DNA of 64,000 nt from Cytophagales bacterium. Its GTDB lineage: Bacteria > Bacteroidota > Bacteroidia > Cytophagales > VRUD01. The stretch covers positions 9,717 through 73,716 of the forward strand of contig VRUD01000001.1 of the NCBI GenBank assembly GCA_019456305.1, given 5' to 3'. The position numbers and the translations under genes were made by a program. Shown here piece after piece: positions 110-57,571 of the stretch. Under the pieces are notes generated by a model that had not been told where the DNA came from, searched no databases, and saw nothing but the letters and a program-made list of their open reading frames with translations. The number at the start of each line of letters is the position of its first letter. The first letter of the stretch is position 1.

Positions 110-175
110 ACTATTGATAATTATTTGTTTTTGCCTACTCTGTTTTAAGGATTTTCGGCTTGATCCTTTTGGTTG

Positions 176-7430: not shown

Positions 7431-7742
7431 GTTGGCAATCGGCAATCGGCAGTCGGCAGTCCACAATCGACAGTCCACAGTCGGCAGTTGGCAGTTGGCA
7501 GTCCACAGTCCACAATCGGCAGTTGGCAGTCCATCCCGAGTACTCGGGAGCAGTCGGCAATTGTTTTTTGCCGACTGGGGACTGCCGACTGCCGATTGAT
7601 TAAGTTAAGTTTCTAAATCCAGTTGCCATATTGTTTTAATGGTTTGATTGTTATTTTCTTTTTTGTCGACTGTGGACTGCCGACTGCCGACTGATTTTTT
7701 TGCCGACTGGAGACTGTAGATTGCCGACTGCCGACTGCCAAC
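7431..7742. repeat. ~310-bp foldback built from GGCAGTC/GGCAGTT/CCACAGT heptamers around a CCCGAGTACTCGGG core
   Basis: 7431-7533 holds heptamers in GGCAGTY orientation and the core is at 7534-7549. 7570-7606 and 7664-7742 hold the complementary words (CCGACTG, GACTGCC). It lies between convergent genes. Confidence 0.8.
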
Positions 7743-13882: not shown

Positions 13883-13972
13883 GGGCATCTCTAAAAACTA
13901 CACCATACATTCCCCTCTATCAAGAGGGGCAAGGGGTGTGTTTTAAAAAATATGTAGTTTTTAGAGATGCCC
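13883..13972. mobile_element. 90-bp MITE-like element (copy 1), 20-bp perfect TIR GGGCATCTCTAAAAACTACA
   Basis: Identical at 90/90 positions to 49125-49214. It sits between the RAYT relic and the A2M start. Confidence 0.7.
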
Positions 13973-22504: not shown

Positions 22505-23370
22505 GATTAGTAGATTTTAGTTAATGTTAAATAATTTGTTTACGGAAAATTGTTTTGGCAGAAGGACTAAAACAGTCAGAGAGATTCTCTTTTTTTTGTG
22601 TAATTTAAATTGCCGGATTGTGTGATTTAAACTCTGATATTGTAGGATTTTGTTTTAATTTTTTGTAGGTTTTTATCCTACAATGATGATAAGAAAGATA
22701 TGTATAACAAGGATGAGAAGAAGCGTTTAGAGAAGTTTAAGCTTTAATCAGAAAAGTTTTAGAAGAGTTGTTAAAAGAGATGGTTGATCATGATTCTGGT
22801 TTCAGTGCTGTCAGGTGTTACCACCTGCCACCAAATCCTCATTGAACACTAAAATATTTTTTTACCGTATTTTAATTTTTTAAATTTTAATAAAATTAAC
22901 GGATCTACAAACGGTCATAAACAATAACCTGCCAAAATAATGTCTTATGATAAAAACATCTTTTAAAGCCATTTTTTATGATCAAATGCTTCCGTTTGAC
23001 AGCAACAAGTCATAATTCGCAGGTTTATTACGTACGCATATTTACGTATTTTCAAAATTACGTAAACTTTTTGTCAAAATAATCGTAATTTAATTTGTAT
23101 TTTAAAAACATTAATTTGTACTTTTAGGAAGATTTTTACTATTTGCATTTTTATCAAAGCTATTTGCATTCTATCAAAATGGAGTATTTAAGTTTTCTTA
23201 TGTGCCTGATATCATCCCAAGCTGCAAAATGCAGCTGTTTTTTTCTGAATAAAATTACCTGTCTGCGTCCCGGGCACTCGGGACAGGCAGGCAAGATCAG
23301 GAAATCTTCTGCTGATTATTCTTTTGGCGCATACGCATGGTATGGAGCAAAGGCCAAAGCGTTGAACGCC

Positions 23371-26300: not shown

Positions 26301-27414
26301 CCTGATACTTACCAATGGAATAGTCAATACCACATCTGCCAATATTTTGATCATTGCTGATAATGCAACCTCTACGAGCGGCTCATCTACAAGCTTTGTG
26401 GATGGACCTATGCGAAAAGTTGGTAATGATGCATTTGTTTTCCCTGTGGGGGACAGCATAATCTGGGCACGCATTGGAATTTCAGCGCCTGCTACGCTAA
26501 CTGCTGCCTTTGAGGCACAATATTTCAATGCTACGTATGCCAATACTGTCTCAGTAGGCACGCTTAACAATGTGAGCAAATTAGAACACTGGATATTGAA
26601 TCGTACTGCAGGAGTAGATGCTGTTACAGTTACCTTATACTGGGAAGATGGTACGCGTAGTGATATTAATGATCTGCCGGATTTAGTCGTTGCCAGATTT
26701 GATGGTACCAATTGGATTGATGAAACACAAGCCGGTGGTGTGACCGGAACAGTAGTAGCAGGTACTGTAACGAGCCAGGTTGTTTCTTCATTCAGTCCTT
26801 TTACGTTTGGGTCAAATAGCGCTGCTGTTAATGCATTACCTGTGGATCTGGTATTCTTCACTGCAGAGCTGGAAGGCGACAAAGTAGTGATTGAGTGGGC
26901 AACAGCAAGTGAAATTAATAACGATTATTTTACAGTGCAAAGAAGCGCTGATGGGGATATTTCACTAAGTTCAGTACAAGGTTTTGAAGATCTTGTTAAT
27001 ATAGATGGTGGCGGCACCAGCAATATGACGTTGTATTATACCGTAATTGACAATAATCCGATTTTCGGAACTTCTTATTATCGGCTCCTGCAGACCGATC
27101 ATGATGGACAGAGAGAATATTTTGATGCAATAAGAGTAAGTTATCTGCCTGAAAATCAAATTTTTAGTATATACCCTAACCCAACTAAGGGTGATGATCT
27201 GCATTTGACTATAAAAACAAGCAAGGATCAGCATTTACGAATAGTAATAACCGATGTAGTCGGCAAAAAATACTTCTTACAGGTAGTTGTATTGAATGAA
27301 GGTGAAAATTCTATTGAAATTGATGCTGCTGGTAAATTATCTCCGGGAGTATATAATCTCACCGGTACAATTGATGATAATTTTTTGTTTTTTAAGAAAT
27401 TTGTGGTTGAATAA
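23371..27414 (+). CDS. Large T9SS-secreted surface protein (two ~450-aa internal modules, two Ig/PKD-like domains, T9SS CTD)
   Basis: Signal-like MLYALCAMLLLISTTSVKAAV at 23371. Repeated NWxxxxTWD..VP modules. CT..TITGPDSVC..YSWTVTGG..ITVDWG domains occur twice. The C-terminus IYPNPTKGDDLHLTI...GVYNLTG is a T9SS CTD. The track start at 23143 reads through upstream hairpins. Confidence 0.7.
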   Translation: MLYALCAMLLLISTTSVKAAVLTSIQTGNWTDASTWDLGYVPLATDDIVIAAGHTVSIPNSAGNQTITNFTINTGGIFNNSNKRVIVTGNYTNNGTHAGSIAARTTLNTPGASVDGIGTIHFGDFVFENGVKTILSTANLTKAFGDFVIGSGVTVTNNGTITSAERLDGVDATTSIWVNAVGSTLNFGGDTLLPVGVLTASAPGNTINYYSSGDQPIKIPTANTYYNLSLSGTGIKILMGNLIIAGNLAINSVTLDVDVTNNYSLNIGGDWTNSGVFDEQLGTVTFDGTADQTITNTLGETFYILRIDKTGGNLILNDNITVTTTLIMNQGNIVTGTNVITVGTSIANIGALAYTSGTVVGQYKKWVNAIGVGYNLPLGTSADYRPFNYTLTNLMGGGGTITGEFISSAPGNSGLSLSDAGVTIYNTFVEGYWSLTGGDGLNTNSFDIEATGNGFTSFTIVASTRLLTRADAGSLWSAEGTHVAAVGNTAKRTGTSTLPAHYAFGDTTNCTGPATSTITGPDSVCTDVTGVLYYVTDNPPNFYSWTVTGGTKVLDNGDSITVDWGSAGMVGDVTVIETNTCSEGAPVSRAVNIHSLPTSVITGKANVAAFTTGVPYSVTARPGYSPYTWSVTGGGTIVSGQGTNSITVDWGAAGAGNVSVVASSGCGDAPSVGLDVNIYIVINSIVNGAWNLTATWDCNCVPDFFDNIRIQNTHTVTLTTNEVINHFEVVAGGVFDAAAKRLEVTGDFNLNGEYNGTNNLTLSGAGTNIDGAGNIFNTGTLIISGGAKTILSTAVLTKSSGSFQIGSGIAVTNQGNITLGGDITGAASTTTWVNDTRSTLNIGGIMLSTGTFFASAANNLVSYYGAVAQSIKLPNASTYHGLSITGSGIKTLTGNTIINGDVNITSTFDVDAASNYSIDMLGNWTNSGTFNAQIGKVTFRGSAAQSITNTTGESFYDLVINNSSGINLGGPVTVNDSLILTNGIVNTTSANILIIADNATSTSGSSTSFVDGPMRKVGNDAFVFPVGDSIIWARIGISAPATLTAAFEAQYFNATYANTVSVGTLNNVSKLEHWILNRTAGVDAVTVTLYWEDGTRSDINDLPDLVVARFDGTNWIDETQAGGVTGTVVAGTVTSQVVSSFSPFTFGSNSAAVNALPVDLVFFTAELEGDKVVIEWATASEINNDYFTVQRSADGDISLSSVQGFEDLVNIDGGGTSNMTLYYTVIDNNPIFGTSYYRLLQTDHDGQREYFDAIRVSYLPENQIFSIYPNPTKGDDLHLTIKTSKDQHLRIVITDVVGKKYFLQVVVLNEGENSIEIDAAGKLSPGVYNLTGTIDDNFLFFKKFVVE

Positions 27415-27420
27415 GTTTTC

Positions 27421-27497
27421 TTGCCACGAAGACACGAAGACACTAAGGTGTTATAAAAAAAATAACTTTGTGATTCTTTGTGTCTTAGTACCTTTGA
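27421..27497. repeat. GTGGCA-family hairpin after the T9SS gene
   Basis: TTGCCACGAAGACACGAAGACACTAAGGTG..loop..CTTTGTGATTCTTTGTGTCTTAGTACCTTTGAG. Its right arm repeats at 28516-28541. Confidence 0.7.
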
Positions 27498-27538
27498 GTT
27501 TGTTTAATCTTTAACAAAACGATGTCATCGCTATATCT

Positions 27539-27754
27539 TTGAATATTAACTTTAAAAAAAATAAAAATGAAAGAAATGAGATTTATGAGCAAATTTCTTC
27601 TGATCCTGAAATTATGCACGGAAAACCTTGTATTAAAGGAACAAGAATTCCAGTTCAATTGATAGTTTCAATGCTCGCTGATGGAATGTCTGAACAAGAA
27701 ATTATTAAAGAATATCCTTCATTGACAATCAATACTGTTTTAATTTTGCAGTAA
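27539..27754 (+). CDS. DUF433-like protein (TTG start, C-terminally short)
   Basis: ISSDPEIMHGKPCIKGTRIPVQLIVSMLADGMSEQEIIKEYPSLT matches the DUF433 core seen twice more at 62370 and 63037. It lacks the usual C-terminal helix. Confidence 0.55.
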   Translation: MNINFKKNKNERNEIYEQISSDPEIMHGKPCIKGTRIPVQLIVSMLADGMSEQEIIKEYPSLTINTVLILQ

Positions 27755-27772
27755 TTTCTTTATCTTTGAAGC

Positions 27773-28090
27773 ATGGATAAAATTGAAATAATAAAAGAAT
27801 TAAAAGAATTACTCATCAAATATTTCCCTGGCGAAATTGCTCAGGTAATATTATTTGGTTCCCAGGTAAACGGAGATGCGCGGGAATATTCTGATTATGA
27901 TGTGCTTATTGTTGTAAATCGTAATTATGATTGGAGATATGAAAGGAAAATATTAAGGGTTGTCTATAAGAATGATCTTAAATACCATATCCTTACTGAT
28001 TTCACACTTATTTCAAATAAAGAATTAAATACCCTTAAAGGTAAACAACCGGTCGTGCTTGAAGCATTTGAAAACGGTATTGTAATATGA
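27773..28090 (+). CDS. Nucleotidyltransferase-domain protein (MNT-type antitoxin)
   Basis: The FGSQVNGDAREYSDYDVLIVV motif is the minimal NTase GS..(D/E).D signature. 105 aa. Confidence 0.8.
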   Translation: MDKIEIIKELKELLIKYFPGEIAQVILFGSQVNGDAREYSDYDVLIVVNRNYDWRYERKILRVVYKNDLKYHILTDFTLISNKELNTLKGKQPVVLEAFENGIVI

Positions 28091-28491
28091 CACTTAAACA
28101 TGAAGATAGAGAGAGTTTGATCAGATACAGAACTGAGCAGGCAGAAGATGCCATTGAAGATGCTCAAATTTTGATCGCAAAAGACAGGTTGAAAGCGGCA
28201 GTAAACAGAATATATTATGCAGTGTACTATATTGTTTTTGCTTTAGCTCTTAAGCACAAATTTAAAGGTACAAAACATTTGCCCCTGATAGCATGGTTTG
28301 ATAAAAAGTTTGTAGAAACAAATGTAGTTGATGTAAAGTATGGCGAAATGTACAGGGAAGCATTTAAAAAACGTTCTGAAGCTGATTATGGAACTTTTAC
28401 AAAATTCACCAAAAAGCAGGTTCTGGATTTGTTTGATCAAATGATGGAATTTGTTAAAAAAATTAAACATCTCCTTTATTCTGATGATTGA
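28087..28491 (+). CDS. HEPN-domain protein (toxin partner of MNT)
   Basis: Four-nt ATGA overlap with the NTase gene. The helical 134-aa protein with ..AVNRIYYAVYY.. and ..KRSEADYG.. fits the HEPN family. Confidence 0.75.
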   Translation: MTLKHEDRESLIRYRTEQAEDAIEDAQILIAKDRLKAAVNRIYYAVYYIVFALALKHKFKGTKHLPLIAWFDKKFVETNVVDVKYGEMYREAFKKRSEADYGTFTKFTKKQVLDLFDQMMEFVKKIKHLLYSDD

Positions 28492-28515
28492 TTTAAATTT
28501 TAAATCTTAGTGAAA

Positions 28516-28541
28516 CTTTGTGTCTTAGTACCTTTGTGGCA
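28516..28541. repeat. Half GTGGCA-family element; 21-bp direct repeat of 27476-27496
   Basis: CTTTGTGTCTTAGTACCTTTG is identical at 27476-27496 and 28516-28536. Here it continues ..TGGCA. Confidence 0.8.
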
Positions 28542-28572
28542 TGAAGGCAATTTTAAGTAGTAGCTTTAAAAA

Positions 28573-29400
28573 ATGTTCTATTTATTGAGAAAATTAATTA
28601 GGTGTAGTATTATCATTTTGGTGTGGTGTCAGGTGTTTCCACCTGACACTCCTGTATTTGCACAGGCTGATAAAACAGCCCGGGAAAATACAGATATGAT
28701 CCCACTTGCTAATGATATGTATAATTTCAGGCATTTTAAAGATGCTCAGGATATCTACCTTAAAGTTCTGGAATTTGGTCCTGATAATGCTGCGGTCAAC
28801 TTGTTGGCAGGTTTATGTTATCTTAAAACAGTGAATAAAGTAAAAGCCATCCCGTATTTAAAAAAAGCACACCAATTGAACCCCGAAATATTGAAGCTAA
28901 TGGTTGATTATATTGAATTTAGCGATGAAGAATTAGCGCGGATCAATTCAACTGATTATATTATATATTTGATAGCAAAAGGATATCACCTGACTCATGA
29001 TTTTAACAAGGCGATAGAATATTATGAGCGTTACCATGATAGTGTTTTGCAAAGAGATTTTTTTAAATGGGGATACAGGTCAAGTGAAAAAAATGAGCTT
29101 ATTAATAAGATAAAGAGAAATATCTTTGAATGTAATAATGGAAAAGAATTTGTGAAGTACCCCGTAGGTGCGTTAATTGACAATATAGGAGTGCTGATCA
29201 ATACGCCTCATTCGGAATATGTACCCTTGATCTCTGCTGATGATTCTGTGCTGATCTTTACATCCAGAAGAATGGGAAGCACTGGCTGGAACAGGTCCGA
29301 AGATCATGACTTTTTTGAAGATATTTATATATCCCGTAAAAGAGGGAATTACTGGGTAAAACCGAAATATAGGCAGCGATATAAATTCTGCCTTACATGA
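28573..29400 (+). CDS. TPR + first PD40 (TolB-like) repeats; 5' part of a frameshifted OmpA-family gene
   Basis: Signal peptide ..VFA|QAD, then TPR-like helices, then ..FTSRRMGSTGW..EDIYIS..YWVKPK. The reading continues in the +1 frame from about 29365. Confidence 0.7.
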   Translation: MFYLLRKLIRCSIIILVWCQVFPPDTPVFAQADKTARENTDMIPLANDMYNFRHFKDAQDIYLKVLEFGPDNAAVNLLAGLCYLKTVNKVKAIPYLKKAHQLNPEILKLMVDYIEFSDEELARINSTDYIIYLIAKGYHLTHDFNKAIEYYERYHDSVLQRDFFKWGYRSSEKNELINKIKRNIFECNNGKEFVKYPVGALIDNIGVLINTPHSEYVPLISADDSVLIFTSRRMGSTGWNRSEDHDFFEDIYISRKRGNYWVKPKYRQRYKFCLT

Positions 29401-29521: not shown

Positions 29522-31837
29522 TTGCATATAAACAGCAATTGTACCGAACCATCCGTATCTGTCACTGCTGACGGTCAAACCTTATATTTTTCAAGTACAA
29601 AACCCGACATATACGGAGACCTTGATATTTTCGTCAGTCATAAAAAAAAGAATGGAAAATGGGGAAAATCAACCAGATTAGGACCTGAAATAAATACAGA
29701 ATATGATGAAGATGCGCCTTTTATACTTCCTGATGGGAAAACATTATATTTTAGCTCCAGAGGTCATAAGGGTATGGGCGATTATGATGTTTTCAGAACC
29801 ATATTGGATGAGAACGGAAAGTGGTCAGAGCCGGAAAATATAGGCTACCCGGTGAATACTGCAGAGAATGATATTTATTTTGTTTTTTCAAATGATGGCA
29901 AGCGAGGGTATTTTTCTTCTTACAGAAAAGAAGGATATGGTGAACAGGATATTTACGTTGTTAATCTGCCCGATTTATTTGCACTTTTTCAACGATTTGA
30001 TAATGATTCTTTAGCTTTAATAGCTATGATAAGATCTTATGGCGTTGAAAGTAATCGGCTGACCAACGAAATAGTTTTAAATGACATATTGGGCGCTGAA
30101 AAAGCAAAAAAAATGGCACAATACCTGGAAATAAAAAGGCTTACCCAAAGCGAAGCGAGGGAACTCGAAAAAGAATTTCTTCAAAAGGATTCAACAGAAG
30201 TTTTAGCTTTAGTAGTATTAGAGGAAGAGGGTAAAATAATAGTGATGGAAGAAGAAGAATTTATGCCTGCCTTTGATCCGCAGGATACAACTGCAACGAT
30301 CAAAGATACTTCTGTTGTAAAAAGTATTACTATTACTACTGACAGCATTGCTGAACAATTTAATGCTGGATTTATGTTCAGTTGTTATTATCGCCTTAGA
30401 ATAGTAGATAAATCAAAGATCACAGTTGAAGGCGGATACATCGTAGATGGAATTACCATCGGATACTATGACCAGGTGGGAGCATTTAACTTTGTTAAAC
30501 TTTCTCCCGATGAGCTCAGGAGACTTTCTGCTCCTGTAGGTTCAATGCTGACTGCCGACAGGGAATTGGTGGTTAATGATATTACTATTGGATACTACAG
30601 TGAAGATGGTGAATTTCACTATTCTAATCTTTCACCTGATGAGATCAGGAGGCTGAGTTCACGTAAGGGACCAGTGCTTACAGCAGACCGCAAATTAATG
30701 TTTGAGGGCGTTACTATTGCATACTACGATGTAGATGGTAAATTTCAGTTTGTCAATCTTTCACCTGATGAGATCAAGAGGCTTAGCTCACCTGAAGGCA
30801 CGATGCTGACGGCAGACAGGAAATACGTAGTGGATAATGTTGCTATCGGTCACTACGATAAAAAAGGAACATTTAAGTTTGCCAAACTTTCTAGTGATGA
30901 GATCAGGAAACTTACACCACCCCCTAAGAGCTCCTTGTTAACGGCAGATAGAAAATTGGTTGTTTATGGAATTACTCTTGGATATTACAATGAGCAGGGA
31001 GAATTTAATGTTTCAAATCTTTCTGCTGATGAACTGGACGAACTTAGTTCAATTGTCGCTGTTTCCCGGAATCAAGTCGATGAGATCACTGTTGGCTGCT
31101 ATGATGACCAGGGAGAATTTAAATATGTAGTACTTTCGCCTGATGAGATCAGATGGCTTACTTCAGTTGCAGGTGCAATGATCACAGCAGATGGAAAATA
31201 TGTAGTTGATGGCGTTACTATTGGATATAGCGCCAGTTCCCAGCCACCTGGCGGGGATAGTATTCCACCGCCTGATTCTCTCTATGGCCCATCTCTCTCT
31301 CCCGCACCCCCTGACCCTCCCGACCAAAGGTACGGGACAGGCCTGAAGGGGGAACGGCCTTCTAATGACTTAACAGTAATAGAGCTACACGAAACAAAAG
31401 ACTCTGCTGAAACTGAAATTGTTTCTGTCTCATCAGAATCTCCCGAAGGGGACCCTGATGATTTTAGCGGTAAAAGTATTGCTTGTGCCGAAGTAGGAAA
31501 AAGTATTAAATTTAAAAATATCCTTTTCAATTTTGACAACTATGCTTTAAGGTCTGCAGCATTTAAAGGATTAAATTATTTGAAAGATGTAATTGAGCCT
31601 TGCGATGAAGTAAAAATTACCATCATCGGGCATACAGATAATGTTGGTCCTGCTTCCTACAACCAGGCCTTATCAGAAAAAAGGGCAAAATCAGTATATG
31701 ATCAATTAATAAAAAAAGGTGTCCAGTCAAGTAAATTAACTTATAAGGGATATGGTGAAGAAAAACCGGTCGTGCCCAACGATACAAAAGAAAAACGGCA
31801 GCTTAACAGGAGGGTGGAGTTTGAAATTTTAAATTAA
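29522..31837 (+). CDS. PD40 repeats + six 44-aa novel repeats + OmpA C-terminal domain; 3' part of the same gene
   Basis: PD40 patterns (TADGQTLYFSS, LPDGKTLYFSS, SNDGKRGYFSS). C-terminal OmpA-like block FDNYALR...IIGHTDNVG...YNQALSEKRA..V...NRRVEF. The frame is open back to 29360. Confidence 0.8.
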   Translation: MHINSNCTEPSVSVTADGQTLYFSSTKPDIYGDLDIFVSHKKKNGKWGKSTRLGPEINTEYDEDAPFILPDGKTLYFSSRGHKGMGDYDVFRTILDENGKWSEPENIGYPVNTAENDIYFVFSNDGKRGYFSSYRKEGYGEQDIYVVNLPDLFALFQRFDNDSLALIAMIRSYGVESNRLTNEIVLNDILGAEKAKKMAQYLEIKRLTQSEARELEKEFLQKDSTEVLALVVLEEEGKIIVMEEEEFMPAFDPQDTTATIKDTSVVKSITITTDSIAEQFNAGFMFSCYYRLRIVDKSKITVEGGYIVDGITIGYYDQVGAFNFVKLSPDELRRLSAPVGSMLTADRELVVNDITIGYYSEDGEFHYSNLSPDEIRRLSSRKGPVLTADRKLMFEGVTIAYYDVDGKFQFVNLSPDEIKRLSSPEGTMLTADRKYVVDNVAIGHYDKKGTFKFAKLSSDEIRKLTPPPKSSLLTADRKLVVYGITLGYYNEQGEFNVSNLSADELDELSSIVAVSRNQVDEITVGCYDDQGEFKYVVLSPDEIRWLTSVAGAMITADGKYVVDGVTIGYSASSQPPGGDSIPPPDSLYGPSLSPAPPDPPDQRYGTGLKGERPSNDLTVIELHETKDSAETEIVSVSSESPEGDPDDFSGKSIACAEVGKSIKFKNILFNFDNYALRSAAFKGLNYLKDVIEPCDEVKITIIGHTDNVGPASYNQALSEKRAKSVYDQLIKKGVQSSKLTYKGYGEEKPVVPNDTKEKRQLNRRVEFEILN
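30440..31231 (+). repeat. Six tandem 132-bp (44-aa) coding repeats
   Basis: Units have the form V(D/N)xITIGYYdxxGeFxxxxLSPDEIRRLSSxxGxMLTADRKxV. Confidence 0.85.
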
Positions 31838-31865
31838 AAAGGTTTTCGTGGTGTCGGGTGTTTCC
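31701..31865. repeat. 165-bp direct repeat, copy 1 (last 46 codons of the OmpA gene plus left arm of its terminator hairpin)
   Basis: Matches 32642-32806 with 3 mismatches. Confidence 0.9.
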
Positions 31866-31872
31866 ACCCGAC

Positions 31873-31938
31873 AATCTCACAGGTACGATTGATGATAATT
31901 TTTTGTTTTTTAAGAAAATAGTGGTTGAATAAGTTTTT
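31873..31938 (+). pseudogene. Relic 3' end of a T9SS-CTD gene
   Basis: About 65 nt with 4 mismatches to 27355-27419. It encodes LTGTIDDNFLFFKKIVVE* versus LTGTIDDNFLFFKKFVVE*. Confidence 0.7.
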
Positions 31939-32041
31939 TTAACACCTTAAAATTTGGATATTTGCAAAAACTTTTTTGTAAGAAATACGTAGCAAGAACA
32001 ACGAACGGAAAACTTAAATACTATATTAGATTAATACTGAT

Positions 32042-32287
32042 ATGAAACCAGAAACTTTAGAAGATATTAAAGAATACAAATTTGTTGATATTTTCAAATT
32101 GACATCTAACGGCACGTTTGAACCAAGAAGGGCAATCAAGATAGAAGGATTGACAATTTATCCAGGACAATCTTTCCGGAAACTTGGAGGCGTTGATTGG
32201 TATGATTTTGTTAGCTATGACATTGGGGCGCTTGAAAGGGCTGATGGGATTTTGGAATTAAAAGGAATTTACGACTTCATTAAGTGA
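32042..32287 (+). CDS. Hypothetical 81-aa protein
   Basis: ATG ORF with no recognisable motif. First gene of a two-gene unit lying between the 165-bp direct repeats. Confidence 0.45.
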   Translation: MKPETLEDIKEYKFVDIFKLTSNGTFEPRRAIKIEGLTIYPGQSFRKLGGVDWYDFVSYDIGALERADGILELKGIYDFIK

Positions 32288-32610
32288 AACAGAGAAAGCT
32301 TTCCTCGCTTAAAAATTTATTCAAAGATGCTCCTTCTACCAAGAACATTGTTGACTTACACAAACGTATTGTCCGGACAGATACACTTGTTTATGTTGTC
32401 CTTATTGCTTTCTTTCTGGCTTTCTTAATGTTTGCATACGATTACTTCAAATTTACCTCTGAGAGCAGACAACGGCTCTACGATAAATTAGAACAAATGG
32501 AAGACACATTACAACAACAGAAAGACGACAGGCAGGACCAAGAAATTAAGCATCTAAAGGAACAAATAGACAATCTCCAACTTTCCATCGACACTACCCA
32601 ACTCCCGTAA
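32284..32610 (+). CDS. Hypothetical 108-aa membrane/coiled-coil protein
   Basis: GTG start overlaps the previous stop by 4 nt. One TM segment (LVYVVLIAFFLAFLMFAY) followed by a QE-rich coiled coil. Confidence 0.4.
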   Translation: MKQRKLSSLKNLFKDAPSTKNIVDLHKRIVRTDTLVYVVLIAFFLAFLMFAYDYFKFTSESRQRLYDKLEQMEDTLQQQKDDRQDQEIKHLKEQIDNLQLSIDTTQLP

Positions 32611-32641
32611 AACAAAAATAAAAAAACTGGGCATAACAATT

Positions 32642-32806
32642 ATCAATTAATAAAAAAAGGTGTTCAGTCAGGTAAATTAACTTATAAGGGATATGGTGAA
32701 GAAAAACCGGTTGTGCCCAACGATACAAAAGAAAAACGGCAGCTTAACAGGAGGGTGGAGTTTGAAATTTTAAATTAAAAAGGTTTTCGTGGTGTCGGGT
32801 GTTTCC
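32642..32806. repeat. 165-bp direct repeat, copy 2
   Basis: See 31701-31865. Confidence 0.9.
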
Positions 32807-32852
32807 TTGTAGAGACGTTGCATGCAACGTCTCTACAAGGAAACACCCGACA
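32793..32852. repeat. 60-bp perfect palindrome (nested hairpin elements)
   Basis: TGTCGGGTGTTTCCTTGTAGAGACGTTGCA|TGCAACGTCTCTACAAGGAAACACCCGACA is an exact reverse complement. It is followed by TCAGGTGGAAACACCTGA at 32859-32876. Confidence 0.9.
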
Positions 32853-32893
32853 TCCCTATCAGGTGGAAACACCTGACAGCACTGTATTAAAAA

Positions 32894-38123: not shown

Positions 38124-39002
38124 ATGGAATTAAAAATCAATAATCTATCAAAAACTTATCCGAATGGTGTAGAGGCGTTAAAAAATGTCTCCTTAACGAT
38201 TCCTACTGGCATGTTTGGTTTACTTGGGCCGAATGGCGCAGGTAAATCAACCTTAATGCGCATCATTGCTACTTTACAGCAAGCAGATACGGGTTCTGTT
38301 TATCTTGATGATCTAAACGTATTGGACCAAAAGGATGAAGTTAGAAAATTATTGGGATATCTACCGCAGGAATTTGGCTTGTACCCAAAAGTAACTGCTG
38401 AAGGTTTGTTGAATCATTTTGCAGTATTAAAAGGTGTTTCTAATCCTAAAGAAAGAAAAGAAGTGATCCATGGTTTACTTCAATTAACCAATTTATATGA
38501 GGTGAGAAAGAAAAATCTGGGAACTTTTTCCGGAGGTATGAAACAACGGTTTGGTATTGCACAAGCACTTTTAGGCGACCCAAAGTTGATCATTGTAGAT
38601 GAACCTACGGCAGGGTTAGACCCTGCTGAGCGCATACGGTTTCATAACCTGCTGAGTGAAATCGGGGAAAATGTCATTGTTATACTTTCTACGCATATTG
38701 TGGATGATGTAAGTGATCTATGCAGCAGCATGGCAATCATTCATCTTGGAGAGGTGCTCTTAACCGGAAGCCCTTTGCAGCTTATGAATGATCTGAAAGG
38801 CAAAGTGTGGGAAAAAGTAATTGAGAAAGATCAGCTAAAAGCGTATAAGGATAAATTTAATGTTATCTCTGCCAGGTTGTTTGCCGGCAAGTCCCTGATC
38901 CATGTGTATAGTGAACAAAAACCGGATAAATCTTTTGAGACGGTACCACCTGAATTGGAAGATGTATATTTTTCTACTATTACAAAAGATATTCATGTTT
39001 AA
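38124..39002 (+). CDS. ABC transporter ATP-binding protein
   Basis: Walker A GPNGAGKST, signature FSGGMKQR, Walker B LIIVDEPTAGLD. Confidence 0.9.
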   Translation: MELKINNLSKTYPNGVEALKNVSLTIPTGMFGLLGPNGAGKSTLMRIIATLQQADTGSVYLDDLNVLDQKDEVRKLLGYLPQEFGLYPKVTAEGLLNHFAVLKGVSNPKERKEVIHGLLQLTNLYEVRKKNLGTFSGGMKQRFGIAQALLGDPKLIIVDEPTAGLDPAERIRFHNLLSEIGENVIVILSTHIVDDVSDLCSSMAIIHLGEVLLTGSPLQLMNDLKGKVWEKVIEKDQLKAYKDKFNVISARLFAGKSLIHVYSEQKPDKSFETVPPELEDVYFSTITKDIHV

Positions 39003-42000
39003 AGAAATTTTCTTTTTTGAACTTAAATACCGCTTCAAGCGCCCTGCCAATTACATATATTTTGGCATTTTCTTTTTGCTGACTTTCCTGGCAGTGAATG
39101 GAATGGCCGGGGGTTTCAAAGGAGTGGTCATCAGTGTTGGCAGCGGAGGCGGAGGGAAAGTACTGGCAAACTCACCATATCAAATTTATCTCCTGATAAC
39201 TCTTCTAAGTTATTTTGGCATTTTGGTGACTTCAGCCATTATGGGCAATCCTGTTTACAGGGATTTTGAACACCAAACGCATTCTTTATTCTATTCAAAA
39301 CCTATTTCTAAATTCGGATATTTAGCGGGCAGGTTTTTGGGTTCATTGGTAATTGCTTTTTTGGTTTTTTTAGGTCTTGGAATAGGGATTTTAACTGCTT
39401 CATGGATGCCGTGGTTAGACCAGGATTATATTGGTCCATTTTATGCAATGGCTTATGTGCAGCCCTATTTAGTTACAGTACTTCCCAACCTGATATTTAC
39501 AGGCGCTATCTTTTTTGCATTAGCCACGCTCACCAGGAATATTCTTTCTACTTATGTTGGAAGTGTTGTTTTCTTAGTCTTGTATTTTATGGGGCTCAGC
39601 CTTCTTTCTGACCTGGAAAATGAAACTATTGCAGCATTATTAGATCCATTTGGAGAAAGCGCTACCGGATTAGCAACAAAATATTGGACAGTAGCTGAAA
39701 AGAATACATTGATCATTCCATTTACCGGGCACTTATTTTTCAACAGAATTATCTGGTTAAGTGCCGGTGTATTGATCTTTGCTTTTGCATATAAAAAATT
39801 CAGCTTCTCTTATTTTATTTCAGAAAAGAGATCTAGGAAAAAATTGAAGCAGCAAACTTTAGAAACTGAAACAATAGATTGGGCAGGGAAATTTTTAATA
39901 CCACGAGCAACCAGGATATTTTCCTTTTCTACAAATTTAGTACAATATATTAAACTTACAGGGCAGGAATTAAAAGGAATTGTAAAGAACGTTTACTTTA
40001 TAGCCATACTATTTGCCGGTGTAGTGCTGATGTTTGTTAATGGAAGCCAGGTTGGAAAGTTTTATGGAACAACTACCTATCCCGTTACCTACCAGGTTAT
40101 TTCAATAATAAGCGGCTCTTTCGGCTTGTTTTTTCTTATTATTATTATCTTTTATGCCGGTGAATTGGTTTGGAGAGAACGTACAACCAAGATCAATCAG
40201 ATTTTTGATGCCCTACCCATCCCTAACTGGGTGCCGTTTAGTTCTAAATTAACTGCTTTGATCCTGCTTCAGGTCGTATTACTCTTAGTAGTAATGCTGT
40301 GTGGTTTAATCATCCAGGTATTTAAGGGGTATTATCATTTTGAGACCGGTCTATATGTAAAATCATTATTCGGATTACAATTTATAGAACTTGCCTTGCT
40401 TTGTGTATTAGCCATGCTGGTCCAGGTAATCGTAAATCATAAATATCTTGGACATTTTATCATGGTTGTATATTTTTTGGTGAGCATTTTTATGGCGCAA
40501 TTTGGTTGGGAACATAAACTATATGATTACGCTGATGATCCGGGATATACCTATTCTGATATGAATGGCTTTGGACATTTTATCTTGCCGATTGGGTGGT
40601 TTAAAATTTACTGGACGGCTTTTGCAGTATCATTAGCGATATTGTCTAACCTTTTCTGGGTACGGGGGTTGGAAACAAGCCTTAAATGGCGGACTCAACT
40701 TGCAAGAAGACAATTTGTTAAGCCCACAAAAATAGCTTTTATCTTAGCTTTATTGGTATTCTTTATTTCCGGTGGTTTTATTTTTTACAATACCAATATC
40801 TTAAATGAATATATGACCAGCAACGAAAGAGAAGAACTAAGTGTAGAATATGAAAAGCGATATAAAAAGTTTGAAAATTCACCACAACCGCGTATAACAG
40901 ATGTAAATGTCAACGTAGATATCTACCCACTTAGCAGAGATGTTGCATTTAAAGGACATTATATTTTAAAAAATAAAACCAACGAGGCTATTGATTCTAT
41001 CCATATTGATATAAATCGCAACATAACTATTAATGATATGTCTTTTGACAGGAATCATAAAATGGTTTTGGAAGATGAGAAGATAGGGTACTACATAGTT
41101 GAATTATCAAAACCATTATTGCCGGGTGAAAATGTAGTGCTTCAATTTGATTTAGCTTTCACTACGAAAGGGTTCAAAAATAGCGGCTCCAATACAAGTA
41201 TCGTTGAAAACGGGACATTTTTACATAGTAACAGCTATTTACCCGCTATTGGCTACAACGAAGGCGGAGAATTAAGTGATGATGATACCCGTAAAAAACA
41301 TGGCCTGAAACCTAAAGAACGTATGGCTTTAGTAAATGACAGCAATGCAAGGTTGAATAATTATATCTCACATGATGCTGATTGGATTACTTTTGAAGCT
41401 ACTATAAGTACCAGCCCGGATCAGATTGCTATAGCGCCTGGTTATTTACAACGTGAATGGACAGAGGGTAACAGAAGATACTTTCATTATAAAATGGACT
41501 GTAAAATTTTGAATTTTTATTCTTTCCTATCTGCAAGGTATGAAGTTATAAGAGATAGCTACGGCCCTACCAGCCCCCCTAACAGCCCCCCTAAATCCCC
41601 CCAAAGGGGGGCTGTTAGGGGGGCTATTGAAATTTATTACCATAAAGGACATGAATACAACCTGGATGCTATGGTAAAAGCTATTAAAAGATCTTTGGAT
41701 TATTATACAGAAAATTTCTCACCCTACCAGCATAAGCAAGTCAGGATACTGGAATTTCCCCGCTATGCTTCATTTGCACAATCATTTCCTAATACCATTC
41801 CTTATTCAGAAGCAATAGGTTTTATTGCACAGGTAGATGAGGATGATGAAGATGATATTGATTATCCCTTTTATGTTACAGCCCATGAAGTAGCGCACCA
41901 ATGGTGGGCTCACCAGGTGATAGGAGGGAATGTACAAGGCGCTACGGTGATGTCTGAAACCATGTCTCAATATTCAGCCTTGATGGTGATGGAAAAAGAG

Positions 42001-42732
42001 TTTGGAAAGGAAAAAATGAAGAAATTTCTTAAATATGAATTGGACAGATATTTAAGAGGTAGAAGTTTTGAACGAAAAAAGGAACTGCCGTTGATATTGG
42101 TAGAAGGACAGGGATATATTCATTATCAGAAAGGTGGGTTGGTAATGTACGCATTGCGTGATTACATAGGAGAGGATTCATTAAATGAAGCGTTAAGAAA
42201 ATATATCAAAGCAGTAGCTTATCAACAACCCCCATATACCAATTCACTGGAATTTTTAAGCTATATCAAATCAGCTACCCCCGATTCTCTGCAATATATA
42301 ATAAAGGATATGTTTGAAACGATTACCTTGTATGAAAACAAAACCAATGAAGCTGTACTTAAAAAACGCCCGGATGGTAAGTATGCTGTTAAGATTAAGG
42401 TAGCGTCTAAAAAGTTACGGGCTGACAGTTTGGGAAATGAAAAAGAGATCCCTGTTAACGACTGGATAGATATTGGGATATTTGGTAAATCCGAATTGAA
42501 AGCAGAGACGCCCAATTTGGACGTCTCTGCTTTCAATTCGGAAAAAAACTCTAATTCGGATAAATCCTCTATTGGTAAGCCTTTGTACCTGAAAAAACAT
42601 AAAATTAACCAGCCGGAAATGGAATTTGAAATTATTGTAGACGAGCTTCCCTGGAAAGCCGGCATAGATCCCTATAATAAATTAATTGACCGTGATTCGG
42701 GAGATAATGTAAAGAAGGTAGGGGCTGGTTGA
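38995..42732 (+). CDS. ABC-2-type permease fused to an M1-family zinc aminopeptidase domain
   Basis: The ATG at 38995 overlaps the ATPase stop (ATGTTTAA). About 12 TM segments run to roughly 40800. Then comes a peptidase domain with HEVAHQWW...E zinc site. Two hairpin insertions are carried in frame. Confidence 0.8.
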   Translation: MFKEIFFFELKYRFKRPANYIYFGIFFLLTFLAVNGMAGGFKGVVISVGSGGGGKVLANSPYQIYLLITLLSYFGILVTSAIMGNPVYRDFEHQTHSLFYSKPISKFGYLAGRFLGSLVIAFLVFLGLGIGILTASWMPWLDQDYIGPFYAMAYVQPYLVTVLPNLIFTGAIFFALATLTRNILSTYVGSVVFLVLYFMGLSLLSDLENETIAALLDPFGESATGLATKYWTVAEKNTLIIPFTGHLFFNRIIWLSAGVLIFAFAYKKFSFSYFISEKRSRKKLKQQTLETETIDWAGKFLIPRATRIFSFSTNLVQYIKLTGQELKGIVKNVYFIAILFAGVVLMFVNGSQVGKFYGTTTYPVTYQVISIISGSFGLFFLIIIIFYAGELVWRERTTKINQIFDALPIPNWVPFSSKLTALILLQVVLLLVVMLCGLIIQVFKGYYHFETGLYVKSLFGLQFIELALLCVLAMLVQVIVNHKYLGHFIMVVYFLVSIFMAQFGWEHKLYDYADDPGYTYSDMNGFGHFILPIGWFKIYWTAFAVSLAILSNLFWVRGLETSLKWRTQLARRQFVKPTKIAFILALLVFFISGGFIFYNTNILNEYMTSNEREELSVEYEKRYKKFENSPQPRITDVNVNVDIYPLSRDVAFKGHYILKNKTNEAIDSIHIDINRNITINDMSFDRNHKMVLEDEKIGYYIVELSKPLLPGENVVLQFDLAFTTKGFKNSGSNTSIVENGTFLHSNSYLPAIGYNEGGELSDDDTRKKHGLKPKERMALVNDSNARLNNYISHDADWITFEATISTSPDQIAIAPGYLQREWTEGNRRYFHYKMDCKILNFYSFLSARYEVIRDSYGPTSPPNSPPKSPQRGAVRGAIEIYYHKGHEYNLDAMVKAIKRSLDYYTENFSPYQHKQVRILEFPRYASFAQSFPNTIPYSEAIGFIAQVDEDDEDDIDYPFYVTAHEVAHQWWAHQVIGGNVQGATVMSETMSQYSALMVMEKEFGKEKMKKFLKYELDRYLRGRSFERKKELPLILVEGQGYIHYQKGGLVMYALRDYIGEDSLNEALRKYIKAVAYQQPPYTNSLEFLSYIKSATPDSLQYIIKDMFETITLYENKTNEAVLKKRPDGKYAVKIKVASKKLRADSLGNEKEIPVNDWIDIGIFGKSELKAETPNLDVSAFNSEKNSNSDKSSIGKPLYLKKHKINQPEMEFEIIVDELPWKAGIDPYNKLIDRDSGDNVKKVGAG
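41572..41625. repeat. 54-bp hairpin in frame in the M1 domain
   Basis: AGCCCCCCTAACAGCCCCCC (41572-41591) is the perfect reverse complement of GGGGGGCTGTTAGGGGGGCT (41606-41625). It encodes ..SPPNSPPKSPQRGAVRGA.. Confidence 0.9.
42491..42541. repeat. 51-bp hairpin (AGACG-CCCAATTTGG-CGTCT core family) in frame in the M1 domain
   Basis: CCGAATTGAAAGCAGAGACG (42491-42510) is the perfect reverse complement of 42522-42541, with loop CCCAATTTGGA. It encodes SELKAETPNLDVSAFNS. Confidence 0.9.
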
Positions 42733-46631: not shown

Positions 46632-46660
46632 TGATTTTGGTTAGTTGGAAAGTGTTTTTT

Positions 46661-46787
46661 GCCACAAAAGCACAAAAGCACTAAATCCCACTAAAAATTA
46701 ACTAATTGATTTTCAGGGTTTTGTGGGATTTAGTGCTTTGGTGTTTTAGTGGCATTTTTATTTTTTGGACTTTTTAGAGTGGACTCA
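46661..46787. repeat. Second copy of the 2066-2218 hairpin (outer left arm missing)
   Basis: GCCACAAAAGCACAAAAGCACTAAATCCCAC..loop..TTTTGTGGGATTTAGTGCTTTGGTGTTTTAGTGGCATTTTT..GAGTGGACTCA. Confidence 0.8.
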
Positions 46788-47047
46788 AATAGTAAAATTA
46801 AATTCATGGCAAAAGTACTTCATCTCTCACAGAATATCAACCAAATTTATTTTATAAAAAAAACATCACTAAAAATTTGTATATTAAAAAACCATCCAAT
46901 ACCTTCGCCCGCAATTTTTGATCCACGCCTGTAGGCGCGGGATCAATATTTAATTTATTATTTAAACAAACACGGAACACGGAACGTACAGACGCCCAAA
47001 TTGGGCGTCTCAACATTCCTCAAATTCCTCAAAACAAATTAATTATC

Positions 47048-47610: not shown

Positions 47611-47652
47611 AAAAAAGCCCTGCTCCCGAGTACTCGGGACGGGGCTTTTTTT
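47611..47652 (+). terminator. Intrinsic-terminator-like hairpin with the CCCGAGTACTCGGG core in its loop
   Basis: AAAAAAGCCCTGC-TCCCGAGTACTCGGGA-CGGGGCTTTTTTT, 24 nt after the stop. Confidence 0.7.
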
Positions 47653-48104
47653 CAACTACATGAATGTTTTTTTAAAAGAATAAAAATCGTTAAATTTGAT
47701 TAGTACAATCAGAGTCTCCCGGAAATCCTAAATTCAAACATATTACTATCTTAAAAAGGGGACTCTGATGGGACTCCTTAAAAATATTAGAATATATTTT
47801 TCGCACACATCAGAGTCCCCTGTTCAGGTTTTTGGTATGACTGCCTGCAACGTGTAGGCTTTTCGAAAGGCAAGCAGGTACGAAGTTTGTATTGGCGGGA
47901 GACTCTGATGGGACTGAAATTTATTTTATAAAAAAACATCACTAAAAATTTGTATATTAAAAAACCATCCAATACCTTTGCCCGCAGTTTTTGATCCACG
48001 CCTGTAGGCGCGGGATAAATATTTAACTTATTATTTAAACAAACACGGAACGTACAGACGCCCAAATTGGGCGTCTCAACATTCCTCAAAACAAATTAAT
48101 TATC

Positions 48105-49066: not shown

Positions 49067-49124
49067 CAACTACATGAATGTTTTTTTAAAAGAATAAAAA
49101 TCGTTAAATTAGTAATTACCTTTT

Positions 49125-49214
49125 GGGCATCTCTAAAAACTACACCATACATTCCCCTCTATCAAGAGGGGCAAGGGGTGTGTTTTAAAAAATATGTAGT
49201 TTTTAGAGATGCCC
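49125..49214. mobile_element. 90-bp MITE-like element (copy 2) with a 12-bp target-site duplication
   Basis: Identical to 13883-13972. It is flanked by TAATTACCTTTT at 49113-49124 and 49215-49226. Confidence 0.8.
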
Positions 49215-49693
49215 TAATTACCTTTTTTAAAAAACACCCCCATCCCCAGCCTGAACACAAACGCATTTGATAGAACATAATAGTCTGCATTTGCCTCAAC
49301 AGCCCAGTGATCGTTAAGCATAAAATCATTTCCCAGACCGAATGAAACATCAAAACTACTTCCCTTTAGTGGGGCTTTTACCAAATAATAACCTTTACTT
49401 CTTAAAAAAAAGGTTTCAGAAAAATATAACCTTAGACCGAGCGCTGCAGCGCTTCTGCTTAAAGAATTAAAATACTCAAAACCCCCGGATAAGGCGAATT
49501 TATCAGCAGCAAAGTAGTTAAGGTCAAATCCAAAGCCAACGCTTTTACCAAAATTCTTGAATGGCTTTTTGTTGTTTGTATTGTATAGATTAACCCCACC
49601 GTTTAGCAGAAAATCTCCCTGGTAAGGTTGGGCATTTGCTGTTAAAACACAACTCATTGCCGCTACAAAGACAGAAAATTTGAATGCTTTCAT
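49214..49693 (-). CDS. Small outer-membrane beta-barrel protein
   Basis: Signal peptide MKAFKFSVFVAAMSCVLTANA|Q followed by alternating beta-strand pattern. 159 aa. Its stop codon TAG is formed at the MITE junction. Confidence 0.65.
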   Translation of the reverse strand: MKAFKFSVFVAAMSCVLTANAQPYQGDFLLNGGVNLYNTNNKKPFKNFGKSVGFGFDLNYFAADKFALSGGFEYFNSLSRSAAALGLRLYFSETFFLRSKGYYLVKAPLKGSSFDVSFGLGNDFMLNDHWAVEANADYYVLSNAFVFRLGMGVFFKKGN

Positions 49694-53807: not shown

Positions 53808-53925
53808 AAAAAAGTAGGTAGCAGCAATTGACAGTGGTAGTCCCTACGCCTACGAATTACGAATTTCCCGAATTACGAATTCGTAATTCTTAGGAAAGGC
53901 GCTCTATGAAAAAAATAAACATAGA

Positions 53926-56089: not shown

Positions 56090-57571
56090 CTAAATATCTG
56101 ATGGTATAAACGACTGGGCATATTTGTTCCGAATCAATTCATCAATGAGACTTTCAACTTCCTCACTATCCCATTTTTGTTCTATATCCTCAATAGTAGT
56201 GATTTCTTTGAGCATTTTATCCTGTTCTTTGCCGATCCGCATAGCTTCAGCATAGGGGATATGGCTAAACATGACCATAGAATATAAGGGAGTAAATTTA
56301 TCAGGGTATGATTTATGGATCTTTCTTTCAAGATTTTTTCGTACTAAAAATTTAGGGTCTCCTACCAGGTCGCGCATTTCAATAAAATTCTGAAGTGCCA
56401 GTTCTGAAATGGCATCCGTATTGGGTTTACGGTTTTTTTCATATTCCTTAAAAATAGTTTCCCACCGTTCTCCCCCGATTGGGTCGTTCCTGCCATCTGG
56501 GCAGGCATACTTTCCCATCAGTTCATTTAGCACTGTTATGTCTTCAAAGCCAGCGATCATTCCCTGGCCGTAAAAGGGAACGATAGCGTGGGCAGCATCA
56601 CCGATCATAGCTACCTTATCTTTGTATGTCCATGGAAAGCAGCGAATATAGCAGAGTGATGAGGTAGGGTTGGCAAAATAAGTTTCAGTCAAAGCAGGCA
56701 TCAAGTCCGCGGCATCAGGGAAGGTTTGAAAAAACTTCAGCAGATCCGATCCTGTTTTTATGGAGTCAAAAGAGGTTGTATCAGTGCCTGTTCCGGAAGA
56801 ATCAGTAGTGTCAGGTGTTTGGTAGAGACGCCCAATTTGGTCGTCTCTACCAAACACCTGACGCCAAGGTAAAAATAAGGTACAGGTAAAGCTCCCATCT
56901 GCATTGGGCAGGGCGATCAGCATATAGTGTTTTCTAGGCCAGATATGTAAGGCATTTTTTTCCATAGCCCAACTGCCGTCAGCGGCAGGCGGAATGGTCA
57001 ATTCTTTATAACCATGTTCAATATAAGTTTGTGCATAATTAAAACGATCGGTCATTTGCATTACACTCCGTATTTGTGAAAAGGTGCCATCAGCGCCAAA
57101 TACCAGGTCACTTTTTACATCTGAGACAGCTCCTGTCTTTTGATTTTCTACTTTGATCACAGCTTCTTCCAAATCAACATCCACGCATTTTTCGTTGAAA
57201 TGAATGGTAGTGTTAGAATTTTTTTCAGCATGGTTCATCAGCGTTTTATTGAGCCCGCTGCGAGAAACAGCGTATATGGCGTCATCTTCTTTTCCGTAGG
57301 GTTGAAAAGAAAGTTCGCCATTGACTGCATGTATCATCCTGCCGCGCATGGGTATGGCTGCCTTGCGGACTTCTTCACCAATGCCCGCATCATCCAGCGC
57401 TTTCCAGCCCCTGGTAGAGCAGGCAAGGTTAATAGACCTGCCGGCAGGTATTTTTGCTTTTCGCATATCGGACCTGCTTTCATAAACATCTACCTGATAG
57501 CCCTTTCTTCCCAGGTATATGGAGAGCAGTGAGCCGATAAGCCCTGCGCCTGTTATGGTGATGTGCTTCAT
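56090..57571 (-). CDS. kmo: Kynurenine 3-monooxygenase (FAD-dependent)
   Basis: ITITGAGLIGSLLSIYLGRKGY FAD fold, GDAAHAIVPFYGQGM motif, and a C-terminal helical region. It carries a hairpin insertion in frame. Confidence 0.85.
   Translation of the reverse strand: MKHITITGAGLIGSLLSIYLGRKGYQVDVYESRSDMRKAKIPAGRSINLACSTRGWKALDDAGIGEEVRKAAIPMRGRMIHAVNGELSFQPYGKEDDAIYAVSRSGLNKTLMNHAEKNSNTTIHFNEKCVDVDLEEAVIKVENQKTGAVSDVKSDLVFGADGTFSQIRSVMQMTDRFNYAQTYIEHGYKELTIPPAADGSWAMEKNALHIWPRKHYMLIALPNADGSFTCTLFLPWRQVFGRDDQIGRLYQTPDTTDSSGTGTDTTSFDSIKTGSDLLKFFQTFPDAADLMPALTETYFANPTSSLCYIRCFPWTYKDKVAMIGDAAHAIVPFYGQGMIAGFEDITVLNELMGKYACPDGRNDPIGGERWETIFKEYEKNRKPNTDAISELALQNFIEMRDLVGDPKFLVRKNLERKIHKSYPDKFTPLYSMVMFSHIPYAEAMRIGKEQDKMLKEITTIEDIEQKWDSEEVESLIDELIRNKYAQSFIPSDI
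56810..56862. repeat. 53-bp nested hairpin in frame in kmo
   Basis: GTCAGGTGTTTGGTAGAGACG (56810-56830) is the perfect reverse complement of 56842-56862, with loop CCCAATTTGGT. It encodes ..RQVFGRDDQIGRLYQTPD.. Confidence 0.9.

Follow-up and report, generated by a model that had tools for sequence, protein, structure and literature searches.

The 60-bp perfect palindrome at 32793-32852 probably arose through the recent insertion of a short mobile double-foot REP into the loop of a repeated hairpin that lies just downstream of a gene. The evidence includes a natural pair of filled and empty sites, the plain hairpin GTCGGGTG-TTTC-CACCCGAC being borne by a paralogue that lies 941 bp upstream and shares 98% identity over 168 bp. 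The window, by which we mean the whole 64-kb stretch of DNA that was analyzed, is part of a metagenome-assembled Cytophagales contig with a G+C content of about 38%, and it holds ordinary housekeeping genes together with toxin-antitoxin-like cassettes and many short hairpin-repeat families.

Structure of the 60-bp palindrome

The palindrome consists of two arms of 30 nt each that are 100% complementary and have no spacer between them, which confirms the 60-bp perfect palindrome of the first-pass annotation. Folded as single-stranded DNA, it reaches -42.5 kcal/mol (z = -12 against shuffles). Its left outer arm, TGTCGGGTGTTTCC (32793-32806), is composed of the arm of a host hairpin of the GGTGTCR type and the former loop TTTC(C), and it is followed by 38 nt that have no counterpart in the paralogous copy, TTGTAGAGACGTTGCATGCAACGTCTCTACAA plus GGAAAC (32807-32844), and by the right arm of the host hairpin, ACCCGACA (32845-32852). 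Within the 38 nt lies the double-foot REP core GTAGAGACG-TTGCATGCAA-CGTCTCTAC (32809-32836; family as defined in PMC6006769). The sequence GTAGAGACG has 4 occurrences in the window where 0.09 would be expected by chance, and GTCRGGTGTTT, with at most one mismatch, has 10 where 1.5 would be; shuffled sequences never attained either count.

A second hairpin of the GGTGTCR type, with the loop GAAA, occupies 32855-32882 in inverted orientation. It had been listed as a related copy at 32859-32876; this is the same hairpin inverted, and the full unit extends over about 32855-32882. It lies 2 nt from the 60-bp palindrome, with its perfect stem (32859-32876) beginning 6 nt away, and the arms at 32789-32806 and 32865-32882 are 89% complementary. 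The outer-family hairpins at 32789-32882 form an inverted pair, so the host resembles a doublet, and the palindrome and the second hairpin together may be viewed as a REP-dimer-like pair. A REPIN, in which two REPs of the same family stand side by side in inverted orientation with a short spacer, is a different arrangement, as here a single double-foot core lies within a hairpin whose arms belong to another family.

Empty and filled sites in a duplicated region

The plain hairpin is located 15 nt past the stop codon of a PD40/OmpA gene, where it reads TGTCGGGTG-TTTC-CACCCGACA over 31852-31873; the simple form that had been placed at 31853-31874 is present, with its limits at 31853-31872. The 168-bp direct repeat, which spans the 3'-terminal part of the OmpA-family gene together with the hairpin's left half, runs on the plus strand from 31698 to 31865 in copy 1 and from 32639 to 32806 in copy 2, with 4 mismatches between the copies, and its final 14 nt in copy 2 are the left outer arm of the palindrome. 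When the segments 31698-31873 and 32639-32852 are compared, the sole difference beyond the 4 mismatches in 168 nt is one clean 38-nt insertion. It is placed after GTTTC(C) and is followed by the shared right arm (C)ACCCGACA, which occupies 31866-31873 in the upstream copy and beyond which the copies diverge; the junction is ambiguous by 1 nt and may be shifted 1 nt leftward. The last six bases of the insert, GGAAAC, are the reverse complement of the GTTTCC to the left of the junction. The insert thus ends in an inverted copy of its left flank, and the former loop is now paired. No direct target duplication was found at the 38-nt insertion, where the only duplicated bases are inverted (GTTTCC/GGAAAC). 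On sequence grounds, this pair shows what appears to be a recent insertion of 38 nt into a pre-existing hairpin. A 168-bp duplication that broke inside the loop was considered and rejected, as homology resumes for 8-9 nt past the 38-nt insert and the repeat therefore ends at the hairpin foot.

The window also contains small two-gene cassettes (27355-28573 and 31698-32852), each enclosed between direct repeats of neighboring sequence that measure about 100-176 bp. The first is an MNT/HEPN cassette (27773-28491), and the second comprises two unnamed ORFs (32042-32610) and opens with the 3' fragment of a T9SS C-terminal-domain gene (31873-31935) that is a 90% copy of 27355-27414.

The inserted unit and its association with RAYT genes

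The inserted unit matches the published double-foot type of REP: the feet GTAG and CTAC enclose a stem made of AGACG and CGTCT, and between the two stem halves lies a tip of variable sequence that pairs with itself. Five copies of the core occur in the 64-kb window, of which four are independent. The double-foot architecture GTAG-AGACG...CGTCT-CTAC was found at 32809-32836 and 56822-56850, and the feet are degenerate at 42503-42529, 46986-47014 and 48052-48080. The copy GTAcAGACG-CCCAAATTGGG-CGTCTCaAC (46986-47014) lies in a duplicated 5' region and has its paralogous duplicate at 48052-48080. The first-pass annotation had located AGACGCCCAAATTGGGCGTCT at 46990-47010 and 48056-48076, and both positions are exact; the supposed separate stand-alone family dissolves into degenerate copies of the REP core, and the two copies reduce to one event, the upstream region of two neighboring genes having been duplicated.

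The core was scanned for in one genome per species with the pattern GTAGAGACG-N6-14-CGTCTCTAC. As GTAGAGACG-N10/11-CGTCTCTAC, it is not lineage-specific and occurs at no fewer than (at least) 120 loci in many phyla; the taxa among the matches listed include Bacteroidota, Cyanobacteria, Chloroflexota, Geobacter, Ignavibacteria, Rhodothermales and others. Among these listed matches, the gap measures 10 or 11 nt in 123 of 130 copies, and its first four positions pair with its last four, with Watson-Crick pairs in 89-94% of copies. The apical pairs use all four pair types and covary; after shuffling of the partner column, pairing falls to 28-46% (first three pairs only, matches listed). A fixed target motif was sought beside the insertions and none was found there; only T at -1 and A at +1 are favored in the core flanks, and these are best read as part of the element. 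A full-text literature search for GTAGAGACG returned unrelated primers only. An Rfam gathering scan of the window gave no match at the REP hairpins and only a DUF805b RNA motif (132-168, minus strand, 41.6 bits), which adjoins a palindrome at 173-208, and a tRNA scan of the window found none.

RAYT or TnpA_REP proteins belong to the Y1 HUH enzymes, which cleave single-stranded DNA and join it again. Among the 120 REP loci listed, five (L020, L022, L082, L105 and L113) carry RAYT-like genes, whose proteins match Pfam Y1_Tnp and contain the motifs NH[LF]H, WQ and YIxNNP; the two that were tested against NCBIfam, L022 and L105, match REP_Tyr_transpos, the REP-associated tyrosine transposase, at E = 1e-15 to 1e-18. 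The phmmer seeds (E. coli RAYT and IS200) were approximate sequences, and the matches were re-tested against Pfam and NCBIfam. The RAYT gene has a REP on both sides in L022 and L105, and a REP lies in frame within the gene in L020, L082 and L113. A reciprocal test started from four homologues of the L105 protein, retrieved together with the DNA around their genes (five loci), and hairpins of the GTAGAGACGCACGGCCGTGCGTCTCTAC type were found beside or inside the RAYT gene in 5/5 loci; several homologues of the L105 protein bear the JGI label "REP element-mobilizing transposase RayT". With these loci included, a tnpA_REP gene flanked by the same REP is seen in other genomes at L022, L105, L247, L250 and L251, and an in-frame REP inside tnpA_REP at L020, L082, L113, L247, L249/L250 and L253. 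Directly downstream of the RAYT gene in L105 (L105:5218-5580), seven tandem copies of a degenerate REP, TGAGACGCCCGGCCGTGCGTCTTTAC, are arranged with a 57-nt period.

The 2018 study by Quentin and colleagues describes subclass 2.4 (Bertels group 4) as having double-foot REPs, whose long stem is framed by the feet GT[AG]G (5') and C[TC]AC (3'), in-frame REP insertions in tnpA_REP, the protein motifs NH[IFV]H, WQ and YIxNNP, and an occurrence in Bacteroidetes, Cyanobacteria and scattered other phyla (PMC6006769). The inner unit fits this subclass by its motifs (those of the L020, L022, L082, L105 and L113 proteins), its taxa, its double foot and its in-frame copies, which identifies it, by sequence, as a member of a known family of RAYT-associated double-foot REPs. 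The link to HUH/Y1 enzymes, offered as an inference in the first-pass annotation, has thereby gained support by association, the core flanking or sitting inside RAYT genes in other genomes and matching the subclass 2.4 REP. The window differs from the published subclass in that the cognate gene is unseen; Pfam scans of 40 ORFs of the 64-kb window found no Y1, RAYT or TnpB gene.

The host hairpin family

Plain hairpins of the host type also occur as GTGTCAGGTG-TTTC-CACCTGACAC, at exactly the 28626-28649 given earlier, and in the degenerate form GTCAGGTG-TTAC-CACCTGCC, which was found as reported and lies at 22810-22829 rather than 22811-22830. As elsewhere in the earlier list of copies, all of which exist, the coordinates were here and there 1-2 bases off. 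The loop is TTTC at three window loci (31853, 28626 and, inverted, 32859) and TTAC at the fourth (22810), and the recurrence of the same TTTC loop at three plain loci identifies the plain form as the base state.

Metagenomes were scanned for the outer arms with GTGTCRGGTG-N8-38-CACCYGACAC. In most of the matches listed, copies of the heptamer GGTGTCR form inverted arrays about unique, non-palindromic spacers, and no REP core was found inside the arms (enclosing 8-38 nt) among the matches listed, so the composite appears to be lineage-specific. A microbial-mat contig (L176) encodes a 239-aa Y1_Tnp protein (39 bits) with the palindrome GTGTCGGGTG-CCTTTTTAAAAGG-CACCCGACAC on both sides (L176:773-805 and 1509-1541). 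According to PMC6006769, inverted repeats with the consensus GGGG[AT][CG]A[CG] flank the Y1 gene of TIRYT/TnpA subclass 2.1, and the heptamer GGTGTCAG is one mismatch from this consensus. On this single case, the outer hairpin family may be served by a dedicated Y1 enzyme, one of the TIRYT/subclass 2.1 type; we present this as a lead and not as a finding.

Intragenic copies in kmo and an M1 peptidase

The composite in kmo, GTCAGGTG-TTTG-GTAGAGACG-CCCAATTTGGT-CGTCTCTAC-CAAA-CACCTGAC (56810-56862; ORF 56090-57571, minus strand), is present where the first-pass annotation had placed it, with arms of 26 nt at 96% complementarity and its REP core at 56822-56850, and it is part of a 54-nt in-frame insert. 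In one relative (L123; protein 89% identical) kmo is without the composite, its outer and inner parts being both absent, and in another (L122; protein 90% identical) a 51-nt insert occupies the same site, sharing the boxes GTCAGGTG and GTAGAGACG with the window and differing in the linker GAT/ATC and the tip AAGCATGCCT. All length differences in kmo are multiples of three. The composite adjoins the foot of another hairpin seen in L123, CATCAGAGT-N12-ACTCTGATG, and does not lie in its loop. The kmo alleles are consistent with presence or absence of the whole composite; the earlier reading of this site as sequential nesting finds no support, since the empty orthologue has neither the outer nor the inner part. 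A second in-frame extra segment of 33 nt in kmo (56456-56524) encodes the peptide ACPDGRNDPIG and holds the hairpin CCTGCC-CAGAT-GGCAGG, and the L122 orthologue is without it.

The copy that had been noted as "42491-41" is present at 42490-42542, inside an ABC-permease/M1-aminopeptidase ORF (38902-42732), where the core lies in the loop of a local TCCGAAT/ATTCGGA hairpin. Two orthologues that are about 90% identical (L124 and L125) have the empty hairpin TCCGAAT-TAC-ATTCGGA; the window has the same arms with 36 additional nt in frame, gcAGAGACG-CCCAATTTGG-aCGTCTCTgc, with degenerate feet (42503-42529), and the loop bases are paired (TG/CA). By parsimony alone, the direction at this site would be insertion rather than precise loss. 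No direct target duplication was found at the 36-nt insertion, and a MITE was discarded as a candidate, as neither the 38-nt nor the 36-nt insertion has a direct target-site duplication. In-frame copies of the REP inside genes are evidently tolerated.

A different G/C-rich palindrome, AGCCCCCC...GGGGGGCT, adds 51 nt in frame to the M1 peptidase at 41572-41625; at this site L124 has a larger, different variant of +99 nt (L124:5552-5840), and in L125 it is absent (L125:4225-4414). A second assembly from the same sample (L126) represents the same population as the window (99.96% identical) and hence supplies no independent allele. Over 15.4 kb it shows only six differences from the window, all within a 1-kb stretch of the M1 peptidase (41549-42526), and the difference at 42526 falls in the right arm of the nested M1 palindrome.

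Recurrence of nesting and position of the inserts

The nesting claimed in the first-pass annotation is real and recurrent, and within the window 3/4 independent cores form the apex of a longer palindrome. In other phyla, 8/128 copies (about 6%, among the matches listed) are prolonged by palindromic flanks of 4 bp or more, an enrichment over the 4/512 offset controls; some 94% of the copies listed there are not nested. One nested example is the terminator-like stem AAAACGGCCG...CGGCCGTTTT at L097, and the nested copies elsewhere run into their flanks without unpaired leftovers. The proposal that insertion occurs in hairpin loops held in part: the 32793 and M1 pairs place the insert in a pre-existing loop, whereas the kmo composite lies at a hairpin foot. 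Insertion at the loop center was not borne out at 32793, where the insert adjoins the loop's 3' edge (TTTC^C or TTTCC^A). In every nested case, the bases that used to form the loop are paired in the product, so more than a simple drop-in is needed.

Proposed pathway and alternative explanations

In the proposed pathway, both the REP and the host repeat would fold as hairpins in single-stranded DNA, for example in the lagging-strand template, on which Y1 transposases work according to PMC6006769. The loop, being the only unpaired bases of the host hairpin, would be the place to which a RAYT-bound REP strand is joined; the E. coli TnpA_REP acts on single-stranded DNA and requires GTAG and a hairpin, binding the single-stranded REP hairpin with its 5' GTAG, cleaving it and being able to transfer strands (PMC3479197). 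The leftover loop bases, at that stage a bulge in a long stem, would then become paired to give a perfect palindrome, either by fill-in during the event or by later template-switch correction of quasi-palindromes. Such a second step is called for because paired former loop bases are not predicted by plain insertion. We infer that, in this organism, a RAYT is the joining enzyme, that the loop is targeted for being single-stranded, and that one of these routes pairs the loop bases. Against the insertion of a mobile REP, homology-driven copying from another composite through the 13-14-nt arms would give the same 38-nt difference without a transposase; moreover, the window is without a RAYT gene, most copies elsewhere are unnested, and kmo varies as a whole composite.

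The empty kmo orthologue, without outer and inner part, and the two filled alleles, with both boxes, would also suit a composite that is one mobile unit as a whole, the plain hairpins being its deletion derivatives, or a composite that spread into plain copies by short-patch gene conversion, using the arms that both have in common. Long perfect palindromes are deletion-prone, the loss of 38 nt in one step, with a 1-nt repeat at its borders, could convert the form at 32793 into that at 31853, and the gene-conversion variant is compatible with 32793 as well. We nevertheless consider this unlikely. The M1 composite has locus-specific outer arms, which its orthologues carry without the core, independent deletions would not give the same TTTC loop at three plain loci, and a single deletion could not convert a kmo-type composite into the plain form. 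In addition, the core is found alone in about 94% of the copies elsewhere (matches listed) and flanks RAYT genes by itself, and the metagenome scan revealed no core inside the outer arms among the matches listed.

Perfect symmetry, the lack of a spacer and the paired former loop bases agree with palindromes that grew in place through fold-back or template-switch copying of one flank at replication, with no loop targeted and with outer arms younger than the core, as do the nested copies elsewhere that enter their flanks without unpaired leftovers. Template-switch perfection of quasi-palindromes is an established mutational route. This origin is improbable, however, given that both arms already occur without a core in the paralogue and in the two M1 orthologues, that the outer arms at 32793 and kmo constitute a repeat family of their own, and that local copying cannot bring the same GTAGAGACG to different loci and phyla. 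Copying in place probably contributes only the final perfecting step to the insertion of the REP into a loop.

It is equally improbable that the hairpins are selected structural signals (RNA stabilizers, terminators or protein-binding sites) that are kept by function and are not mobile DNA. The positions at 32793 and 31853, just past stop codons or between convergent genes, and the covarying apex would be in keeping with such signals, and REPs are reported to affect mRNA stability and termination (PMC3733652). Yet copies lie in frame within ORFs (kmo, the M1 peptidase and RAYT genes), their presence varies among relatives that are about 90% identical, with different variants at one site, the association with a transposase family is tight, and the hairpins show no terminator T-run and no Rfam match. 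A secondary function of the REP hairpins is possible. An intrinsic terminator in particular was rejected, as TCCCTAT follows the palindrome, ATCTCAC follows the plain hairpin and a consensus scan found none. An assembly or amplification artefact, such as a chimeric fold-back, is scarcely credible even for a metagenome assembly whose second version containing the window comes from the same sample, as an independent assembly of another sample (L122, GCA_022567835.1) has a variant of the same architecture at the kmo site, reading frames are kept (54, 51 and 36 nt), and the core recurs in unrelated public genomes (at least 120 loci).

Beyond the insertion at 32793, we advance more tentatively, and with less than even confidence, a general rule in which REPs of RAYT subclass 2.4 would choose their targets by structure, landing in the unpaired loops of other REPs, terminator-like stems and chance intragenic hairpins, so that loop becomes stem and palindromes grow layer by layer. 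If true, an existing hairpin would become a hot spot, which would explain the different variants at one site in close relatives, and the pairs described here would be the first natural before-and-after pairs defining REP integration.

Comparison with known systems

The movement and the landing sites of REPs and REPINs are known mostly by inference. In vitro, REP DNA is cleaved and joined by RAYTs, and the natural integration target is undefined in PMC3479197 and in the available sections of PMC6006769. The lineage studied here gives clean empty/filled pairs of the REP core, one paralogous (32793) and two orthologous (M1 and kmo), with an additional orthologous pair for the other palindrome family at 41572-41625. 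In two of these pairs (32793 and M1) the REP occupies the loop of a pre-existing hairpin and the loop ends up paired, which yields a concrete, testable model of target choice for a single-strand DNA transposase family. Such a model would explain the origin of long perfect palindromes, normally unstable, in bacterial genomes, and would account for the extra in-frame peptides and the rapid turnover of alleles in housekeeping genes such as kmo and the M1 peptidase. The components were already known, and the modestly new element lies in the natural empty/filled pairs, which point to loops as landing sites and to stepwise palindrome growth; the accessible text on subclass 2.4 gives no account of REPs in hairpin loops, composite perfect palindromes or empty/filled pairs (PMC6006769).

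With the GTAG-tagged REPs, the REPINs and the E. coli TnpA_REP system, the window shares short GTAG-tagged palindromic repeats that lie mostly after genes and sometimes inside them, with different REPs at about one site in orthologues (PMC3733652; PMC3116915; PMC3479197). Classical REPs have one unpaired GTAG, whereas the element of the window pairs GTAG with CTAC, so that both strands read as tagged. A palindrome also serves as a precise landing site where SDR5 enters HIP1 in Nostocaceae (as reported in PMC4390886 and PMC5861425), and as a landing site where IS1397 enters REP palindromic units (cited in the references of PMC3116915), although the inserted element, the host and the enzyme differ in both cases. 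Rickettsia palindromic elements (RPE) and other intragenic REPs are likewise in-frame palindromic repeats in housekeeping genes, tolerated as extra peptide (PMC3733652); RPE differ in sequence family and host phylum, and the intragenic copies of the window are nested composites whose alleles turn over between close relatives. An IS200/IS605 insertion sequence was excluded as a candidate, the elements being 28-60 nt long and without coding capacity of their own.

Other hairpin repeats in the window

A second small palindromic core, CCCGAGTACTCGGG, recurs at 180-201, about 7534-7547, 8500-8519 and 47625-47638, and at L122:2152-2173. It occurs at the apex of a terminator-like stem (47611-47652), within an array of inverted heptamers (7500-7600), inside the ORF of a LysM protein and in the contig of a relative; the copies at 47625 and about 7540 lie at hairpin tips. 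Several other families of hairpins, long and imperfect, consist of short tandem units, namely GCCACAAAAGCAC..., GGGCATCTCTAAAAACTACA..., ACGAATT heptamers and GGCAGTY heptamers, with loci at 2093-2184 and 46660-46754, 13883-13972 and 49122-49217, 53849-53894, and 7440-7600. The genome is unusually rich in such short-unit hairpin repeats.
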